DNA from: Myxococcales bacterium
Lineage (GTDB): Bacteria; Myxococcota_A; Polyangia; Polyangiales; Polyangiaceae
NCBI GenBank assembly: GCA_947473045.1
Contig: CANJCO010000014.1
Coordinates: 39,118-71,117 of the forward strand
Direction of reading: 5' to 3'
Length of the DNA: 32,000 nt
The notes beneath the pieces are model-generated. The model saw nothing but the letters and a program-made list of their open reading frames with translations. It searched no databases and was not told the DNA's origin. This document shows positions 114 to 23,273 of the stretch, piece after piece (the first letter of the stretch is position 1; each line of letters begins with the position of its first letter). The position numbers were made by a program, and so were the translations under genes.

Positions 114-1391
<1,278 letters not shown>

Positions 1392-1460
1392 TAACCGCTC
1401 CCTAAACCTTCTTCTTATCTCTCCAATTCCAAGACTTATGGCGTCGACACGCAAATATCG

Positions 1461-1490
1461 TTGATTGCACGATTTTCTGCGTGTTATAGT
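1461..1490 (+). promoter_or_regulatory. Sigma70-like promoter candidate (TTGATT-18 nt-TATAGT) in an AT-rich island
   Basis: -35 TTGATT at 1461-1466, 18-nt spacer, -10 TATAGT at 1485-1490. It lies in the only AT-rich stretch between ftsY and the next gene. Motif match only. Confidence 0.35.
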
Positions 1491-1700
1491 GGCTGGTGGT
1501 TTAGCTATAAGCCAAAATCCTCAGTTTTTTGGGGCAGTTACGCAGTCCTCGCACTGTCGAGATCGCCGAGCTTCTTCGCGTAAGGGAAGTGGGGCGGTGC
1601 CACCTAAGGGGTCGCGATGAACTTCAGGATTGAGCCGGCCGGCAGCGCCGGGCGGATCGAACGGAAGCCTGACGAGGCTCGTAACAAACCGGTCGAAAAA

Positions 1701-2660
1701 ATGAGCAAGTGCTTCGCGCTCGCTGCAGCGGCGACGCTGTTGTTGGCACCCGTAAATGCGTTCGCCCAAAAGGGCCCCACCAAAGCCGACGCCCCTGGCG
1801 CTGGGCAGACGCAGGAGCTCGATCTCGATCAGCCTGCCGATGCCAAGCCCGCAGGTCAGGAAGGCACCGCCAACCCGGCGGCTCCGGCCGGCGGCATCTG
1901 CGAAATCGACCCGTCGGCCTGCCCCAAAGGGCAGGATCTCGGCGAGGCGGCCAAGCGGAAGGTCAAGGCGGATATCTACGCGGTGGAGCAGATTTATGCC
2001 CTGCGTTATCATCGCTTTGAGCTCCAGCCCTACTGGAACTTCACCCTGAACGATCAGTTCGTCAGCCACCCGGGACCGGGCTTGGCGATGAACTACTACC
2101 TTACCAACGTCCTCGCGGTCGGTCTCAACGGAAACTTCTATTCCGGACTCAACGTCGACTCGGACTTCAACTTTCAGAACCGCCGCGCGACGCGTGTTGC
2201 GGTTCCGCTGAATGAGTACTCGTGGAGCGGAGCCCTCGACTTCACGTACGTGCCGGTTTACGGCAAGTTCGCCGGGTTTTCGAACTTCATCTTCAGCTAC
2301 GACATCTTCGTTCAGGGCGGCGTCGGCGCGATTTCTACGCGACCCATCCCGGTCATCGACCCTGACAACCGGAAGTTCGACTTCGCTCCGAAGGTCGCCT
2401 TCAATGTCGGCATCGGGCTGCGCGTCTTTCTTACGCGCTGGCTCGCGGCGAACATCATGATCGCCGACTACATCTTCCCCGAGAAGCTTGAGAGCCTGAG
2501 CATCGCACCCGGTCCGGTCGGTCAGCCGAACAACCCGACGTCTCCGTCGAACTCGGCGACGTGGCTCCAGGATGGCGCAAGCGTCACCAACAACGTGCAG
2601 GCGCAGATTGGCATCAGCGTCTTTCTCCCCTTCAGCTTCAACTACAGGCTGCCCAAATGA
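1701..2660 (+). CDS. Secreted outer-membrane beta-barrel-type protein (paralog 1 of a pair)
   Basis: ORF 1617..2660 trimmed to ATG 1701, which gives the signal peptide MSKCFALAAAATLLLAPVNAFA. The mature part is Gly/Tyr/Phe/Asn-rich with an alternating pattern. Shares the block VPVYGKFAGFSNFIF...GGVGA with the next gene (IPFRGKLALFQALFV...GGGAA). Confidence 0.75.
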   Translation: MSKCFALAAAATLLLAPVNAFAQKGPTKADAPGAGQTQELDLDQPADAKPAGQEGTANPAAPAGGICEIDPSACPKGQDLGEAAKRKVKADIYAVEQIYALRYHRFELQPYWNFTLNDQFVSHPGPGLAMNYYLTNVLAVGLNGNFYSGLNVDSDFNFQNRRATRVAVPLNEYSWSGALDFTYVPVYGKFAGFSNFIFSYDIFVQGGVGAISTRPIPVIDPDNRKFDFAPKVAFNVGIGLRVFLTRWLAANIMIADYIFPEKLESLSIAPGPVGQPNNPTSPSNSATWLQDGASVTNNVQAQIGISVFLPFSFNYRLPK

Positions 2661-3543: not shown

Positions 3544-3590
3544 GCGAAGGCCGCTCCCAATTGGGTAGCGGCCTTCGTGCTTTGTTGGGT
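3544..3590. terminator. Bidirectional hairpin terminator between convergent genes
   Basis: Perfect 11-bp inverted repeat, cgaaggccgct (3545-3555) with agcggccttcg (3567-3577). Followed by tgctttgtt on the plus strand and cttttc on the minus strand. Confidence 0.6.
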
Positions 3591-13645: not shown

Positions 13646-15109
13646 ATGAAGTTCTTCCTCAACGTGACCGTCGCCGCTGCCGCCCTCGCCTCTATCGCCG
13701 GCTGCGGTGAATACGAGTACGCCGGGCGCCCTGTCGCCTATGCGCAGGGAAGCCTCGCCTACGCCGAGCCGGTTCGAGCCGAGGCGCCAGTCGCGGCCAC
13801 CGTCGACGCTCGCGCAGGCGACCCACAAGACGTCTTCATTGGCGCTCCCGCTGACGAATACGCCGACACCGATCCCTCGGCGTTGAGCGACTTCCGAAGC
13901 ACGCTCGACCCTTACGGAAATTGGGTCGAAGACAGCACGTACGGGACGGTCTGGGTGCCCTCTTCCAACGTGGTCGGCGCAAACTTCACGCCGTACGTTA
14001 CTTCGGGTCACTGGGCGTACGGCGACGACTATGTGTGGGTCTCCGACTACGACTGGGGTTGGGCTCCGTTCCACTACGGCCGTTGGGTTTACATCGACAA
14101 CCGCGGCTGGAGCTGGATCGCCGGGCGCTCCTACGCAGGAGCCTGGGTGAGCTGGCGCACCGGCTACGACGGTTGGGGTTACGTGGGGTGGGCGCCGATG
14201 CCTCCGAGCTGGTACTGGCGCGGCGGCCTGGCGATGGGTTTGGGAGTCATCCCGCGCGCCTCGTACACGTTTTGCGCCAACGGCGATCTCTTCGCGCCGG
14301 CGATGGGCGGACGCGTGATCGCCGGTCAACAGGGCGCCGTCGTGGGTAGCCACACCCGTCCGTACACTCCCGCGAGCCCCACGGTTGGCGGCCCGGGACG
14401 CACCGCGGCCTCGCCGACCGTCAACGGTTCTGCGCCTCTCGGGCAGCATCACATCGGACCGCCGCCCGCTTCACTCGGCCTCGGCGCCGGTCAATTGTCG
14501 GCGCCTCCTTCGCAAGATCGCGGTCTGCTACGCGCCGGTCAGTTTGCCAGGCCGAGCACCGCGACCGTGGCCGGCGCGCGGTCTCCCGCTCCGTTCGCGC
14601 CCGCGGGCAGCAGCTGGACGCCGTCGCCCACAAACGCTGCGGCTGCCGGCTACAGCCGCACCATCGGCGCGCCGGACTACAACGGCCGCGCGGTCGCCTC
14701 GTCGCCCACGTTTCGCCCCTCACAGTATGGGCCTACGCAGACCTCCCGCCCCGCAGCGACCGGCAGCGCACCGACAGTATTCGGCTCGCCGAGCTCCGGC
14801 GGCGCGCGCAGCCAGGCGCCCCAACGCATCTACTCGACGGCCCCGAGCGGGTCTGCCCCTTCGTACTCACCGCAGGTCAGCGCGCCCACCTTTCACAGCA
14901 GCGCACCTTCATACTCACCGCAGGTCAGCGCGCCCACCTTTCGCAGCAGCACCCCAACGTACGCACCCCAGGTCAGCGCACCCACCTTTCGCAGCAGCAC
15001 CCCAACGTACGCGCCCCGCGTCAGCGCACCTGCCCCCGCCTCGCACGGCTCATTCGGCGGCGGCGGACGATCCTTCACTGGCGCTGGCGGCCGCGGCGGC
15101 CGTCGATAA
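13646..15109 (+). CDS. Lipoprotein with Trp/Tyr/Gly-rich domain and Pro/Ser/Thr-rich repetitive tail
   Basis: ORF 13466..15109 trimmed to ATG 13646 (MKFFLNVTVAAAALASIAGC lipobox). Core is YGTVWVPS...HWAYGDDYVWVSDYDWGWAPFHYGRWVYIDNRGWSWIAGRSYAGAWVSWRTGYDGWGYVGWAPMPP. The C-terminal 250 aa are low complexity, ending GGRGGRR. Confidence 0.8.
   Translation: MKFFLNVTVAAAALASIAGCGEYEYAGRPVAYAQGSLAYAEPVRAEAPVAATVDARAGDPQDVFIGAPADEYADTDPSALSDFRSTLDPYGNWVEDSTYGTVWVPSSNVVGANFTPYVTSGHWAYGDDYVWVSDYDWGWAPFHYGRWVYIDNRGWSWIAGRSYAGAWVSWRTGYDGWGYVGWAPMPPSWYWRGGLAMGLGVIPRASYTFCANGDLFAPAMGGRVIAGQQGAVVGSHTRPYTPASPTVGGPGRTAASPTVNGSAPLGQHHIGPPPASLGLGAGQLSAPPSQDRGLLRAGQFARPSTATVAGARSPAPFAPAGSSWTPSPTNAAAAGYSRTIGAPDYNGRAVASSPTFRPSQYGPTQTSRPAATGSAPTVFGSPSSGGARSQAPQRIYSTAPSGSAPSYSPQVSAPTFHSSAPSYSPQVSAPTFRSSTPTYAPQVSAPTFRSSTPTYAPRVSAPAPASHGSFGGGGRSFTGAGGRGGRR
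14855..15046 (+). repeat. In-frame 48-bp tandem repeat, 4 copies (16-aa unit APSYSPQVSAPTFxSS)
   Basis: Units are 14855-14902, 14903-14950, 14951-14998 and 14999-15046. Copies 1/2 and 3/4 are near-identical pairs. The last copy degenerates in its second half. Confidence 0.9.
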
Positions 15110-15130: not shown

Positions 15131-15697
15131 ATGCGCCCTCTGTTCGCCCTCCCATCGATTCTCGCCCTCCCATTGTTCGCCGCCTGCATCGTCGATCCGG
15201 GGCCGAGCAACCGCAACCCGCCGCCGAGCGGCACAGTCCCCGCAAGCGTTCCGCCGATGGTGGTCTCGGTTGACACCAACCAGACGATGAACGCAAAAGG
15301 CGGCGAGGGCGTCGGCGTGTTCGTCGAGTACCGCGCGGGCGGCCACTGGCACGTCTGGCTCACCTGTGACACGAGCGTGAGCGGGCAGGACTGCAGCTTC
15401 AAGCTGAGCGCCGGCGCAACATCGGGGTCGCTTCGAAACCTGCTCCCGACGTCAGGAGGAACCGCCCAGGTCGATGTGAGCAACATCGGCGGCGCTATCA
15501 CTGCGAGCTCACGCATCACCACCGAAGTCGCGGGAGTCGATTTCGACTCTGATCCTGGAGCGCGCGTTACCATCGACGCGAGCGTCAGCGGCTTGCACAC
15601 GGGAGATTTCTTCTTCTTCGTGCAAGACGGAACGGTCAACGGCGGCTTCGGCGGCAAGTTCACCAACCCGCTGGCCTTCGAACCCACGCAGCCTTGA
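15131..15697 (+). CDS. Lipoprotein, unknown function
   Basis: ATG at 15131. Signal peptide and lipobox MRPLFALPSILALPLFAAC. 188 aa with high GC3. Its stop overlaps the folK start region. Confidence 0.7.
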   Translation: MRPLFALPSILALPLFAACIVDPGPSNRNPPPSGTVPASVPPMVVSVDTNQTMNAKGGEGVGVFVEYRAGGHWHVWLTCDTSVSGQDCSFKLSAGATSGSLRNLLPTSGGTAQVDVSNIGGAITASSRITTEVAGVDFDSDPGARVTIDASVSGLHTGDFFFFVQDGTVNGGFGGKFTNPLAFEPTQP

Positions 15698-16182
15698 GCT
15701 ACGATGGCCGCGTGCGCGCGGTCCTCGGCATCGGTAGCAACCTCGGCGACAGGCTTGCGCTCATTCGCGAAGCGGTCGCGCAGATGCGAGCCGTCGCGTC
15801 GGTGCTGGCGGTGTCGCCAGTCTACGAGTCGGACGCTCTCGGCCCGCCGCAGGGCCGGTACCTCAACGCGGCCATGCTCGTCGACACCCCGATGGCGCCG
15901 CTCGCGCTGCTGGCGGCGATGCACGAAGTCGAACGGCACCTCGGCCGGGAGCGCCGCGAACGGTGGGGAGCGCGAACGCTCGATCTCGACGTGCTCTGGA
16001 TAGAAGGCACTTCCGTCGACGATGCCGCGCTGACGGTTCCCCACCCGGCGCTGCGCGAGCGCGCGTTTGCGCTTAGGCCACTGGTCGACGTGGCGCCGCT
16101 CGCGGTCGACCCGCGCGATGGGCAAAGACTCGCGGACGTGCCCCGCGACGACGCGAGCCTCGTCGTGTTTGGGTACGCGTAG
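15694..16182 (+). CDS. folK: 2-amino-4-hydroxy-6-hydroxymethyldihydropteridine diphosphokinase (HPPK)
   Basis: Motifs LGIGSNLGDR, SPVYESDALGPPQ..YLNAA, ERHLGRER..RWGARTLDLDVL and VPHPALRERAF. The start is TTG 15694, overlapping the upstream TGA, or in-frame GTG 15712. Confidence 0.9.
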   Translation: MSYDGRVRAVLGIGSNLGDRLALIREAVAQMRAVASVLAVSPVYESDALGPPQGRYLNAAMLVDTPMAPLALLAAMHEVERHLGRERRERWGARTLDLDVLWIEGTSVDDAALTVPHPALRERAFALRPLVDVAPLAVDPRDGQRLADVPRDDASLVVFGYA

Positions 16183-16195
16183 GCGCGCACCGCCA

Positions 16196-16236
16196 CAAAA
16201 AGCACGAAGGCGACCTGGTTGCCCAAGCCGCCTTCG
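16196..16236 (-). terminator. Strong rho-independent terminator, minus-strand oriented
   Basis: The minus strand reads cgaaggcg-g-cttgg-GCAA-ccagg-t-cgccttcg then tgcTTTTTgtgg. This is about 14 continuous pairs including two G-U pairs that exist only on the minus strand, a GNRA loop and a U5 tract. On the plus strand there is no T tract and the wobbles become mismatches. Confidence 0.7.
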
Positions 16237-18430
16237 CGGAAGTTCACGTAGTCTGCGCGGACTCACGAGGAGCCTCTGGTCGGTGATTGGCCAACCCGCA
16301 AACCTGCTGCCGAGGCCGCGACCTTTCGAGCCGCGTTCTGCCATCGACACATCATCGCTCCTGCACGATGCCCGCTGCGAGCCCGACGCGATTCGCGTCG
16401 GTCGAACTCGAACGGATCGGTGGGGAGGTTATCCCGCACCAGCTTCGGAAGACTTTCACTCGAGTCGCACAACCGCACCTTTCGGCGCTGCTTACGACGG
16501 ACCCACCGCGCCTTTGTTTCGGCTGGATGAGCCTTGCCCGAGATGGAGCCTGCCTCTCACGCTCTGTTGTCGCCCCTTGGGCACCGCGCGTCGATTCCTG
16601 TCGAGCGAAGCTTTGGCGCGCCTTTGGTCTTTCGAAGAAAGGTCCGCCCAACCCTGGGAGCCAAGAACCGCCTCGACGGCGCTCGTTAAAGCGCTGGATC
16701 GTGCCGGCTCAAAGCGCGTTCTGTCGTGCCGTATCCCTCGAGAGCAAAAAGCCCTTGAGCCCGGATATTTCAGCTCGAATTGAGACTGAAACATCACAGG
16801 TCACCCGTTCGCGAAAGCTTCGGCTGCGGTTCGAGCTCAGCTCGATGTCTGCAGAGGCTGTTGCTAGCGCCACTCCCGACGGCAGGCCTTGCGGCCAGCC
16901 GACGACGATGAGGTGCAAGGTGAGGTAGACCGACGTCTGCCATCGTTGCCTGTTTTTCGGATGCGAGCACCCGTGCCTCGTGGGTTTTCGGTGAGGTCGC
17001 GCCCCGCATGCGCTCGAGCTTCAGGCTCTTGCCCATGCTGCCCTCCTTGCGGCTTTCGCCTTGGGGTGAGCTACCGAACCGCGCTTGCGTTTCACGACGC
17101 AATCGCGGGCTGAGGCGGCCTGCTCATCGTGGTGGCGAGGCGTTTTCTTCCTCGCACTACGCTGTTCAGACGAGCCCCTGACGCCTCTGTCGAACCGCTC
17201 CGAGAAGGCGCCGCGCACCTGGGTGAGCGACGGCATCTGCGTTGAACGATTCCGAAGACCGCTTCGTACGACGGCCCCGTGAAGGGCCGACGCGTAGGCG
17301 ATCCGAGAGCGCCTTCCACCGAAGGGAGTTTCTTCTCGGCCGGTGGGCTTGCGCCCGCTTGCCGTGCACCCTGAACATCGCTCTTTCGAGCGACATCTGC
17401 CTGTGCAAACCAGGAGCGATCGCGTGGCTTAGCCACCGCGCGTCACTCCGCTGCGCCTTTTGGGGCAGCGACTGGGACTCCGCCAGTTAAGCGGGAGCCT
17501 CCGTTCGCAAACCCTGGGCTTTCCGTGCACGCCTGCGTCTTTCGACGCGGACGCTTCATGAAAACCTGACGCAGCCCTTCGACTTCTGCAACACAACGAA
17601 CGACACACGGACGCAGCCTTGGCGAACGTTCGTAACCTCGCGTGCGCTCCCTTGGTTTCCCGCAGAAGCGTTTTTCGGGCGCCTGCCGAAGCAGGAGTGC
17701 TTTCGCACCGGACACCCGTCGCGAGCTGGTTGCGCTTTGATCTCGCGCCTCGTGTTGATTCGAGGCGACCCCTCCTGAAGCGAGAGGACATTTCGCCGTT
17801 GCCGGCGAATACCGAGAGCGAACCAGGCCGATGAAGCTCAGGCAAAGATAAAGCGAACCGCACGCCTCTCGGCGAACCCCGCACCGCGTCGCGCTTACGC
17901 CCGCCGCGTTCCTTCCCGATGCCGCACCGAACCCCTCTTGTCGCCAGAGCGGCAGCGCGGAGGATTGGAGCCCACCACGCCGCGCGCCAAGGCCGAGGTC
18001 TGCCCCGATGACGTGCCCCGCGAAGGGCGCTGTCACCGCGGGTTGACCGAGGTGCTTGCCACCGCCCGGAAACGAATAAAGCCGAGGTATTTCTCCCCGG
18101 TTTGTTCGTCAGGGCCTTCAGTTCACGCCGCCCCGGGAGGGGACTTGCAAGCTGAAGCGCCCACGCTTTTTTTACCTCGCCCTGCCCGCCTCGGTCTGAT
18201 GCCCGAAGCGGAGGGAGAAGCTTGGCCGAACCTGCAGCGCGCCGACGAATCGACACCCTTTACAGACCGACCACAGCGCCTGATGCGGCTTTTGCGATCG
18301 AACGTTCGCGGACTTGCGTTACCGCGAACTTCGAGCGGCGTTATGCCTGATCACTGCGAACGGCTCAAGGAAAAAGTCACCGTTCAAACGCGAATATTTC
18401 GCAAGAGCGTCACGCGCGGGCAGACCGAAG

Positions 18431-18450
18431 TTTTCCACAAGTTATCCATA
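18431..18450 (+). promoter_or_regulatory. Two adjacent DnaA-box-like 9-mers
   Basis: TTTTCCACA (18431-18439) fits TTWTNCACA. TTATCCATA (18442-18450) has one mismatch. The two are head-to-tail, 2 nt apart. Confidence 0.25.
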
Positions 18451-18530
18451 GGCGCCCATTCGGCTCGTTCGGCGATCCATGAGCGGGGAGCGCACCGCGG
18501 GCTCGCGACCGAATCATGCAAAACAATTGC

Positions 18531-18552
18531 TATTGATTGCAGGTATTGATTG
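18531..18552 (+). repeat. Direct repeat TATTGATTG x2 in an AT-rich patch
   Basis: Copies at 18531-18539 and 18544-18552, with a 13-bp period. They sit immediately 3' of the stop of the 18559..19389 gene. The 9-mer TTGATTGCA also occurs at 1461-1469. Confidence 0.4.
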
Positions 18553-18558
18553 TCGCGA

Positions 18559-19389
18559 CTATTGGGCAAACGCGAGCGTGGCATCGGCGAAGAGAATGCT
18601 CGCGTCAGCCTGTAGCGTCGCCGCCGAAATCACCGCGGCCACGTCTTCGAAGCGTGTCGCCGGCGCGGCCGTCACGATCACGGTGGTGTCGGCAGCGAAC
18701 TCCCGATGCAGCCCCTTGATGCGCGCGAGACACGCCTGCAGCGCAGCCAAATCGCGGCCACGTACAGCGAGGCCGGTGCCGATGTCATCGCAGCCCGGCG
18801 CGAGATTCGCGCCCGTCGCCCGCACCGCGTAGCCGTCCGGCGAAACGCGAACCGTCGCGCGGAGCCCGGGCTCGGTCGTGCAGGCCATCACGTTGGCGTC
18901 GCGTCGCTGGGGGCCAGCATCCTGGACGGGGGCCGCTCCGCGAAACGTGTATTCGCACTCAGGCGGAAGCGGCGCTCCAAGGCGGAGCGACGCGACCCGG
19001 CCGTCGGGCCCGGCTACCGCAAATGCAACGTGATCCGTGCGCAATCCTGCCATTCCAAGCGCGGCCACGAGCGCCGAGACGACCTCGAACATCGCCCCAC
19101 GATCGACGTAAACCAGCACGTCGCCAGACGCACCGAGGGCGCGCACGACGCGCTCGCGCACCACGGCGTCATGCAAGCTTTCGCGCAGGTCGCGCGTCGT
19201 CGCGAGCAAGGCCCCGTCGCGCTCCACGCCTCGCGAATCGAGCACGAGCCGCGAGCCTGCCTGCGGAGGAGCGCCGCTCGCTGGCGCGAGGGACAGCCCT
19301 TGCGGCGCAGCGAACGCGTCGATCGTCGCTTCCGTCCTGCGACACCGAAGGGCGCACGCCATGAGCAGCAGCCCGCAGAGGCGACGCAT
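18559..19389 (-). CDS. Secreted or lipoprotein of unknown function (two weakly ExbD/TolR-like alpha/beta modules by eye)
   Basis: 276 aa. Signal peptide MRRLCGLLLMAC. Two segments, VLVYVDRGAMFEVVSALVAALGMAG and TVIVTAAPATRFEDVAAVISAA, resemble ExbD-type periplasmic domains. High GC3. Confidence 0.7.
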   Translation of the reverse strand: MRRLCGLLLMACALRCRRTEATIDAFAAPQGLSLAPASGAPPQAGSRLVLDSRGVERDGALLATTRDLRESLHDAVVRERVVRALGASGDVLVYVDRGAMFEVVSALVAALGMAGLRTDHVAFAVAGPDGRVASLRLGAPLPPECEYTFRGAAPVQDAGPQRRDANVMACTTEPGLRATVRVSPDGYAVRATGANLAPGCDDIGTGLAVRGRDLAALQACLARIKGLHREFAADTTVIVTAAPATRFEDVAAVISAATLQADASILFADATLAFAQ

Positions 19390-21130: not shown

Positions 21131-21173
21131 CAAAAAAAAGAAATCCCCCGAGAGCCTGAGCCCCCGGGGGATT
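21131..21173 (-). terminator. Rho-independent terminator of groESL
   Basis: The minus strand reads aatcccccg-(loop)-cgggggatt followed by tcTTTTTTTTg. The stems are 21165-21173 and 21142-21150, and the A8 run on the plus strand is 21132-21139. Confidence 0.8.
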
Positions 21174-21207
21174 GCATGCATTCTGCAGCTATTGCCGCAG
21201 ACTCGGC

Positions 21208-22869
<1,662 letters not shown>

Positions 22870-23163
22870 TCAGTTCTGGATCACGCCGAGGATGTCATCC
22901 TCGCGGAGGATGAGGCGCTCCTGGCCGTCGATCTTGACCTCGGTGCCGCTGTACTTGCCGAAGAGCACGCGGTCGCCGACCTTGACGTCGAGCGGGCGGA
23001 CTTTGCCGTCATCGGCGACCTTGCCGTTGCCGACCGCGATGATCTCGCCCTCGATGGGCTTCTCTTTGGCGGTGTCGGGGATGATGATGCCGCCCTTCGA
23101 CATCTTCTCTTCTTCAACACGCTTAACGAGGACGCGGTCCTGCAGGGGACGAATCGTGGCCAT
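22870..23163 (-). CDS. groES: Co-chaperonin GroES (Hsp10)
   Basis: ORF trimmed to ATG 23163 ([36 protein letters not shown]...). AAGGAGAG lies 4 nt upstream. Confidence 0.97.
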
Positions 23164-23273
23164 AGTGCTCTCCTTGGTTGCTCTCTGGCTCGCTGACGAG
23201 CCTTCAAAAAACGCCCGCCGCGGATCGGCGGGAGGTGCGAACGACCACGCGCAGAGCACGAGGCCGTCGATTG

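Follow-up and report, generated by a model that had tools for sequence, protein, structure and literature searches.

The window, which is a stretch of 32,000 nucleotides (nt) from a genome assembly of a Myxococcales bacterium of the Polyangiaceae (GCA_947473045.1, contig CANJCO010000014.1, positions 39,118 to 71,117), contains a gap of 2,376 bp between two convergent genes, and this gap is analysed here as the probable gene of a very large structured non-coding RNA (ncRNA) on the minus strand. The gap reaches from the end of folK at 16182 to the end of a minus-strand gene at 18559, which encodes a putative lipoprotein of 276 amino acids (aa) and is the last gene of a groES-groEL-SnoaL-DUF4337 string. 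The PrkA-DUF6600-hypothetical-folK synteny is common to many Polyangiaceae metagenome-assembled genomes. An earlier note on this DNA had pointed out the unusual length of the gap, which is five times that of the next-largest gap that separates called genes on this contig (~457 bp). It had also described the content of guanine and cytosine (GC) as visibly lower; the content is indeed lower in the block, by a small margin (62.8% vs 65.6% in the remaining window). The features of the locus are collected in Table 1.

A conserved, non-coding block

The DNA of the block is non-coding. All six reading frames are interrupted in the gap, and the longest open reading frames (ORFs), which have 275 aa (17429..18256, minus strand) and 238 aa (plus strand), are both Arg/Ser/Pro-rich and have no Pfam match. 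The plot of GC by codon position is flat over 16200-18600, where the flanking genes differ by 0.25-0.5, and it is flat too in the homologous region of the relative L038. The substitutions between the window and L038 have no 3-base periodicity, with one nominal exception, and 9 of the 63 indels are divisible by 3. Gene callers place different short spurious ORFs in the block in different assemblies. The earlier note, which had seen no intact frame, Arg/Ser/Pro-rich ORFs and a poor coding signal, agrees with the flat plot and the missing periodicity; it had also raised the case of relatives with an intact gene here, and no conserved or intact ORF is present at this position in the relatives examined. 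A pseudogene or a hidden coding region is excluded by the frame plots, the periodicity, the indel lengths and Pfam. The nominal exception is a 180-nt window at 17803-17982 with phase-biased substitutions (p < 0.001, uncorrected), which is treated as chance; coding was rejected there, where the open plus frame gives an Arg-rich nonsense peptide that is cut by a 14-nt indel in lineage B.

Relatives of the locus were collected by several routes. L024 is identical to the window and L024-L031 are at least 99.7% identical, which is too little variation to be of use. L032, which was found through a 94%-identical homolog of the lipoprotein, has ~95% nucleotide identity and a spacer of 2,377 bp vs 2,376 bp in the window, and L036, which is partial and was found by a DNA scan, also has ~95% identity. 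L037 and L038 were found in metagenome contigs by a 20-mer shared with L035. Homologs of a small lipoprotein led to L046, which is a third deep branch with a complete locus, and to L047, which is close to the deletion derivative L005 and carries the first 430 nt of the RNA. L039 and L040 were rejected as homologs, being chance 20-mer matches in unrelated sequence.

The block aligns end to end, from a terminator near folK to a conserved box at the other side, with L032, L038 and L046, which represent metagenomic Polyangiaceae-like lineages. The folK protein of L038 is only ~55% identical, yet the whole block is homologous. Pairwise identity of the RNA is 60% between the window and L038, 61.5% between the window and L046, and 78% between L038 and L046; half of the columns (50%) are invariant among the four lineages, with invariant runs of up to 20 nt, and the length from box to terminator stays within 51 nt (2254, 2255, 2282 and 2231 nt). 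Between the spacers of the window and L032, which have ~5% differences, some 200-nt bins are far more conserved, with 2 differences in 18201-18400. The block is under purifying selection.

The distribution of the element is narrow. A profile of the whole RNA (nhmmer) has no match in 25 other Polyangiaceae folK loci, which include the closest folK relative (67% identity), so the spacer does not always accompany folK, a point of synteny that the earlier note had left for checking. That note had recognised no known family, and Rfam 15 bears this out. Its 4227 models, which include OLE, GOLLD, ROOL, HEARO, raiA, group I and II introns, RNase P, the ribosomal RNAs (rRNAs), tmRNA and 6S, give no match at gathering score anywhere in the window, and at E <= 10 just two matches in 16000-18800, with 15-16 bits vs thresholds of 45-72 and E ~8, which are chance hits. 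L032, L035, L038 and L046 were scanned too and have no match at E <= 1. Literature searches did not bring up an RNA of this kind from Myxococcota.

That the block is neutral or decaying DNA, such as an old pseudogene or the remnant of a mobile element, or an element that acts as DNA, for instance an origin of replication or hairpins in a REP-like array, is very improbable. Myxobacterial genomes do tolerate long spacers, and two DnaA-box-like 9-mers lie at 18431-18450. However, alignability over the full length at 55% folK identity, together with the compensatory changes described below, excludes neutrality, and the block has no residual coding signal. No repeat families were found in it, which also led to the rejection of a repeat or REP/MITE array; blastn against plasmid and phage collections found no homolog, and viral contigs have no exact match to one conserved 20-mer. 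An oriC was rejected on the grounds that there are just two DnaA-box-like sites and no AT-rich unwinding element. Across the window the cumulative GC skew falls steadily and never turns, and every 500-bp bin of 16001-18500 has at least 61% GC.

Secondary structure and strand

Conservation of base pairing was measured by a non-circular test, in which the pairs are taken from the minimum-free-energy fold of one sequence, with limited span, and are scored in another lineage. The scored pairs are those changed on both sides, and in the null the substitution on the 3′ side is a random draw from the spectrum of substitutions that was observed. For the window and L038, 63-69% of the double-changed pairs still pair on the minus strand (null 43-48%), with z ~5.5, and z is 3.3-3.9 on the plus strand. 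Between the window and L046 the fraction on the minus strand is 69-71%, with z 6.3-7.0 (plus strand 2.4-3.9), and L038 and L046 give z 3.8-4.3 on the minus and 2.1-3.4 on the plus strand. For coding DNA, which served as control (2.86 kb at 70.6% identity), z lies between -0.9 and +1.3 on the minus and between -0.5 and +1.0 on the plus strand; this is ~0 and shows the test to be calibrated. Compensatory changes in homologs, whose absence the earlier note would have counted against its proposal, are present (z 5.5-7.0 in the deep lineages).

A consensus structure was computed with RNAalifold on an alignment of five sequences, in two halves. The 5′ half has 333 pairs with 92.6% of the cells paired, and 65 of them are double-changed, compared with 33 ± 3.6 in shuffles and 8-17 in slid controls. 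In the 3′ half 65 of the 378 pairs are double-changed (95.7% of the cells paired; shuffles 20, slid controls 6-9), which makes 130 double-changed pairs out of 711 for both halves together. A separate consensus of six sequences has 603 pairs in 80 helices, with 154 covarying pairs spread over the entire 16250-18460. The consensus folding energy has a mean z of -3.4 relative to column-shuffled alignments and is uneven along the block, with weak values near 17550-17710 and 17153-17350. The feature under selection is a dense set of ~80 RNA helices, which are readable solely on the minus strand, are often capped by GNRA or UNCG tetraloops and have A-rich single-stranded segments between them.

The best-supported long helix encloses a hairpin capped by GAGA or GUAA at 17867-17870, and the same helix appears in the five-sequence consensus as helix 24, with 8 of 17 pairs double-changed. 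The stem of the hairpin at 17790..17811 is replaced almost wholly through compensatory changes. In the most conserved block, part of which served as anchor of the metagenome scan, the 10-pair helix (helix 7) is invariant and its loop varies.

The single sequence of the window carries the same signal. Inside the block, the z of the folding energy of 150-nt windows averages -1.46 on the minus and -0.59 on the plus strand; outside it is ~0. Counting GNRA tetraloops with a closing stem of at least 4 bp, against 300 dinucleotide shuffles, gives 9 hairpins on the minus strand (shuffles 2.15 ± 1.4, 0 of 300 reaching 9) and 1 on the plus strand, and the density in the rest of the window is 0.6-0.7/kb. 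UNCG hairpins number 5 on the minus strand (shuffles 1.26, 3 of 300 reaching 5) and 0 on the plus strand. The density of hairpins and of the hexamer is matched neither by shuffles nor by the remaining sequence, which the earlier note had named as a possible objection. From its list of individual hairpins, those at 16480, 17349, 17384, 17540, 17701 and 17799 are recovered, whereas those at 16630 and 17054 have stems of just 2-3 bp. The word bias that it had reported is exact: CTTTCG occurs 7 times in the block at the positions given there, or 2.95/kb vs 0.51/kb elsewhere, with its reverse complement once, and CGAACC, which is GGTTCG on the minus strand, occurs 7 times vs 1. The 11-nt GNRA receptor (CCUAAG/UAUGG) is absent.

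Several properties assign the structure to the minus strand. One-sided changes are kept as G-U pairs when the minus strand is read (z from +1.6 to +3.0), but not when the plus strand is read (z from -1.4 to +0.9), except for one L046-L038 comparison, in which the plus strand reaches z +2.8. The GNRA loops swap within their family between lineages, as GAGA/GUAA at 17867, GCAA/GAAA at 17799, GAAA/GAGA at 17540 and GUAA/GCAA at 17895. In the RNA sense, G exceeds C and A exceeds U in all lineages, and the A content is 29-34% at unpaired and 10-13% at paired positions; such a composition with A-rich unpaired positions is the usual signature of folded RNAs. The preference of the earlier note for the minus strand is thereby supported by the G-U asymmetry, the tetraloops (9 + 5 vs 1 + 0), the A-rich loops and the conserved terminator, and its broader proposal of one or more long structured RNAs on this strand agrees with the covariation, the strand tests and the non-coding result. 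The GUGA loop at 17273-17288, which it had listed as counter-evidence from the plus strand, reads AUGA in L038, so that the GNRA type is not kept there. We consider it very likely that conserved RNA structure of the minus strand is present in the block.

Ends and continuity of the candidate RNA

The block is closed on the folK side by the strong minus-strand terminator that the earlier note had described, which faces folK. Its stem (16238-16203) has 16 pairs, of which 10 are G-C, with a 4-nt loop and the tail CUUUUUGUGG, and it is present in the minimum-free-energy fold. The run CGCCUUCGUGCUUUUUGU (16212-16195), which is the 3′ half of the terminator, is invariant in the four full-length lineages, and the terminator survives in the deletion derivative L005 (30/31 nt). 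It works on the minus strand only. A second terminator-like hairpin lies on the plus strand at 3545-3590, and its tail GCCTTCGTGCTTTGT is the same as the tail GCCTTCGTGCTTTTTGT of the RNA terminator, so the match of 30/31 nt in L005 is by itself no proof of homology; the shared tail suggests a terminator design typical of the lineage.

At the other end, homology begins at a box of 20 nt, which on the plus strand consists of two tandem DnaA-box-like 9-mers in the same orientation, TTTTCCACA and TTATCCATA. These are the sole matches to TTATCCACA with at most one mismatch in the 32-kb window, and their cores TCCACA and GTTATCC are invariant in seven sequences, which cover all lineages. The box may serve the RNA as promoter or operator, and a DnaA-dependent control of the RNA or of a divergent lipoprotein gene would be speculation. 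The spacing at the box does not fit the GG-N10-GC of a sigma-54 promoter. A -10 element of the TANNNT type (TAACNT) is possible at the box, with no conserved -35 seen by eye. The direct repeat of TTGATT lies ~85-100 nt upstream of the box and in other lineages sits between the RNA and the divergent gene of the small lipoprotein; it is retained in the window lineage though that gene is absent, and it may have a regulatory role.

The arrangement of the genes around the block differs between lineages. In L035, L038 and L046 an opposite-strand gene of the small lipoprotein lies between the 5′ box of the RNA and the gene of the 276-aa lipoprotein, so that in these loci the RNA is no simple 3′ extension of the operon. 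Lineage A (the window and L032) lost this gene and keeps the RNA. L005 has an inverted cassette of terminator, box and lipoprotein gene, and ~2.15 kb of the RNA body are cleanly deleted, which leaves the box and ~50 nt joined to the last ~60 nt with the terminator. The deletion is recent, since L047, the close relative of L005, retains the 5′ part of the RNA. As the deletion removed the interior, the two ends belong to one unit. The gene of the small lipoprotein encodes ~165-180 aa (L005 1624-2366, L035 2169-2717, L046 3163-3672); in the window lineage, which is without it, the sequence just before its start appears to be joined to the end of the 276-aa gene.

These arrangements bear on the number of RNAs. 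A cluster of several smaller structured RNAs, which would be transcribed independently from the minus strand, is unlikely. It would fit a structure that consists mainly of local hairpin domains and a consensus z that varies along the block, with its weak stretches near 17550-17710 and 17153-17350, and the single continuous transcript, with its 5′ end, is a prediction. On the other hand, the sole conserved terminator is at the far end, and homology and length are kept as a single unit. The deletion in L005 takes the interior and leaves exactly both ends, and there are no AT-rich promoter-like gaps inside the block. Hairpins followed by a U-run at a minus-strand site (18082-18100) and a plus-strand site (18154-18169) are not conserved, with the former kept in neither L032 nor L038. 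One stand-alone RNA of ~2.25 kb is the probable product.

The earlier note had also allowed for a giant 3′ extension of the upstream operon. In such a case the block would be the structured 3′ untranslated region of the groES-groEL-SnoaL-DUF4337-lipoprotein operon, produced by read-through from 18559 and acting in cis, for example on mRNA stability. In the window lineage the RNA does follow the 276-aa gene directly on the same strand without an intervening terminator, and a separate promoter was not detected. This option is disfavoured by the plus-strand lipoprotein gene that intervenes between operon and RNA in L035, L038 and L046, by the inversion of the L005 cassette relative to the operon, and by conservation that begins abruptly at the box, ~110 nt past the stop codon, and we regard it as improbable. 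A long plus-strand leader (5′ untranslated region) or regulatory region of the small lipoprotein gene is suggested by the start of this gene ~300 nt past the box, on the strand equivalent to plus, in the same three loci. It is highly improbable, as the strand tests favour the minus strand and the terminator functions on this strand only; moreover, lineage A retains the block at 95% identity despite the loss of the lipoprotein gene, while L005 retains the gene and lost the block.

The reading that we favour is that 16194-18450 encodes, on the minus strand, one very large structured ncRNA of ~2,250 nt, which belongs to no described family, and we give it a probability of about 0.7. Several points weigh against it. 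We infer that there is a transcript, where its 5′ end lies and that it is intact. The sequence gave no convincing sigma-70 promoter, and conserved -35 and -10 elements were not identifiable by eye in the alignment. About four independent lineages are available, effectively two deep clades with sub-branches, so the statistics of covariation for single pairs are weak and the detailed fold, especially of long-range helices, is unreliable. In 16572-16960 the plus strand has the lower consensus z (-2.9 to -5.2 vs -1.6 to -3.0 for the minus strand), contrary to the rest of the block, which makes the strand assignment a global and not a local result; noise, symmetric helices or an antisense element of local extent may account for this reversal. 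The RNA also has a narrow distribution, and one relative, L005, deleted its body, so that it is dispensable, accessory and not essential. Finally, the neighbourhood of groESL, SnoaL, DUF4337, lipoproteins and folK hints at no partner protein or function.

Table 1. Positions of the candidate RNA, its parts and the adjoining genes in the window
Feature	Position	Strand	Remarks
Candidate large structured ncRNA	16194..18450	-	~2,254 nt, from box to end of the terminator U-run; 5′ end putative
Intrinsic terminator, putative 3′ end of the RNA	16194..16238	-	16-pair GC-rich stem, GCAA loop, then CUUUUUGU
Long covarying hairpin domain	17112..17178	-	21 pairs, 8 covarying, 95% paired
GAAA-capped hairpin (GUAA in L038)	17365..17407	-	15 pairs, 7 covarying; 10-bp stem in the window
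Invariant 20-nt segment GUUGUGUUGCAGAAGUCGAA	17578..17597	-	Invariant across four lineages
GNRA hairpin (GCAA; GAAA in lineage B)	17790..17811	-	9 pairs, 7 covarying
Best-supported long helix	17826..17933 (5′ arm 17933-17910, 3′ arm 17848-17826)	-	20 pairs, 11 covarying, 98% of cells paired
Most conserved block: hairpin CUCGAAGUUCGCGG-loop-CCGCGAAC, then GUUCGAUCGCAAAAGC	18288..18335	-	Invariant runs of 14 and 16 nt
Conserved box where homology begins, TGGATAACNTGTGGA in RNA sense	18431..18450		Invariant in seven sequences, including L005
Direct repeat TTGATT-N7-TTGATT	18533..18551		From alignment and sequence; invariant, upstream of the RNA
folK (HPPK)	15694..16182	+	PF01288, E 5e-36; convergent with the 3′ end of the RNA
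Putative lipoprotein gene, 276 aa, lineage-specific	18559..19389	-	Same strand as the RNA, upstream of it

Proposed mechanism and relation to known large RNAs

Transcription of the candidate RNA would start at or just upstream of the box TGGATAACNTGTGGA (~18430-18450), from a promoter of its own in the AT-richer stretch with the TTGATT repeats and the DnaA-box-like pair. A single primary transcript would run to 16194 without a conserved internal terminator and may adopt a tertiary fold of several domains, with long-range docking contacts made by GNRA loops and A-rich strands. Judging from its anatomy, the RNA may be similar to OLE, GOLLD and ROOL and act in trans, either as a folded RNA or at the core of a ribonucleoprotein particle, and its mode of action would be neither that of a base-pairing regulator nor that of a cis leader. 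Somewhat less likely than not in our estimate, and put forward tentatively, is that it is the first of a new class, a single kilobase-scale "ornate" RNA of ~2.25 kb with a defined multi-domain fold, which would be a ribozyme, the scaffold of a ribonucleoprotein or an assembly of RNA alone. Among the known structured RNAs of bacteria outside the ribosome it would be by far the largest, perhaps regulated through the DnaA-box-like pair.

OLE, ROOL and GOLLD have sizes of ~600, ~580 and ~800 nt, respectively. Each new large RNA has opened unexpected biology, most recently with RNA-only cages and oligomers seen by cryo-electron microscopy (cryo-EM). The candidate resembles these RNAs in being large and stand-alone, in its dense structure with many GNRA loops and no coding capacity, in covarying helices interspersed with highly conserved single-stranded nucleotides, and in a patchy or narrow phylogenetic distribution with a function not evident from sequence. 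It differs from them in its length of ~2,250 nt, which is about three times that of the largest, and in its host, a GC-rich member of the Myxococcota and not a Firmicutes or phage context. There are no adjoining genes of oapA-type proteins and no phage or tRNA neighbourhood. With cmscan there is no match of sequence or structure; the comparison is meant as a functional analogy and not as homology. Cryo-EM structures of OLE, GOLLD and ROOL show defined homo-oligomeric complexes (PMC12286853).

The 16S and 23S rRNAs share with the candidate the kilobase size, the multi-domain arrangement of local helices, the excess of G over C and of A over U, A-rich loops and richness in GNRA and UNCG loops. 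Unlike them, it matches no rRNA model even at E <= 10 and is a single-copy accessory locus, which is absent from most relatives. It is also fast-evolving, with ~60% identity between lineages, while the DNA of the PrkA gene in other Polyangiaceae loci is 81-85% identical to that of the window. Group I and group II introns and RNase P are likewise large folded RNAs with GNRA-capped hairpins, and the hairpin at 17365-17407 superficially recalls a domain-V-like stem of group II introns with a GAAA loop. However, no Rfam model of these RNAs matches, there is no ORF of a reverse transcriptase or maturase, and the block has no flanking exons and sits between convergent gene ends.

To our knowledge, the large structured RNAs of bacteria other than rRNA (OLE, ROOL, GOLLD, group II introns, RNase P) are all below ~1 kb, and we know of almost no characterised ncRNAs from Myxococcota. 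The element is rated here as a new RNA family of unprecedented size, in a category, that of large structured ncRNAs with unknown function, which is already established. If the favoured reading is true, the size range of structured bacterial RNAs outside the ribosome is extended about threefold, and structural biologists and ribozyme hunters would be offered a concrete and testable target. Long "empty" spacers of large GC-rich genomes can then hide RNA genes, which gene callers fill with spurious ORFs.

Some minor features of the window lie outside the block. The DUF6600 gene carries near its 3′ end, at 14862-15030, a tandem repeat of 48 bp (3.5 copies, 89% matches); no other stretch varies as much between the window and L032, and the repeat also differs among near-identical strains (L029). 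In L038, an insert of ~2.3 kb (360-2643) with two ORFs (445..1710 and 1550..2632) lies between folK and the gene of a hypothetical protein of 188 aa, two genes that directly adjoin each other in most Polyangiaceae loci and in the window, but not in lineage B. A plus-strand ORF of 674 aa (21172-23196), which has no Pfam match, overlaps the real groEL (21208-22839, minus strand; Cpn60), so that spurious long ORFs arise readily in this GC-rich genome.

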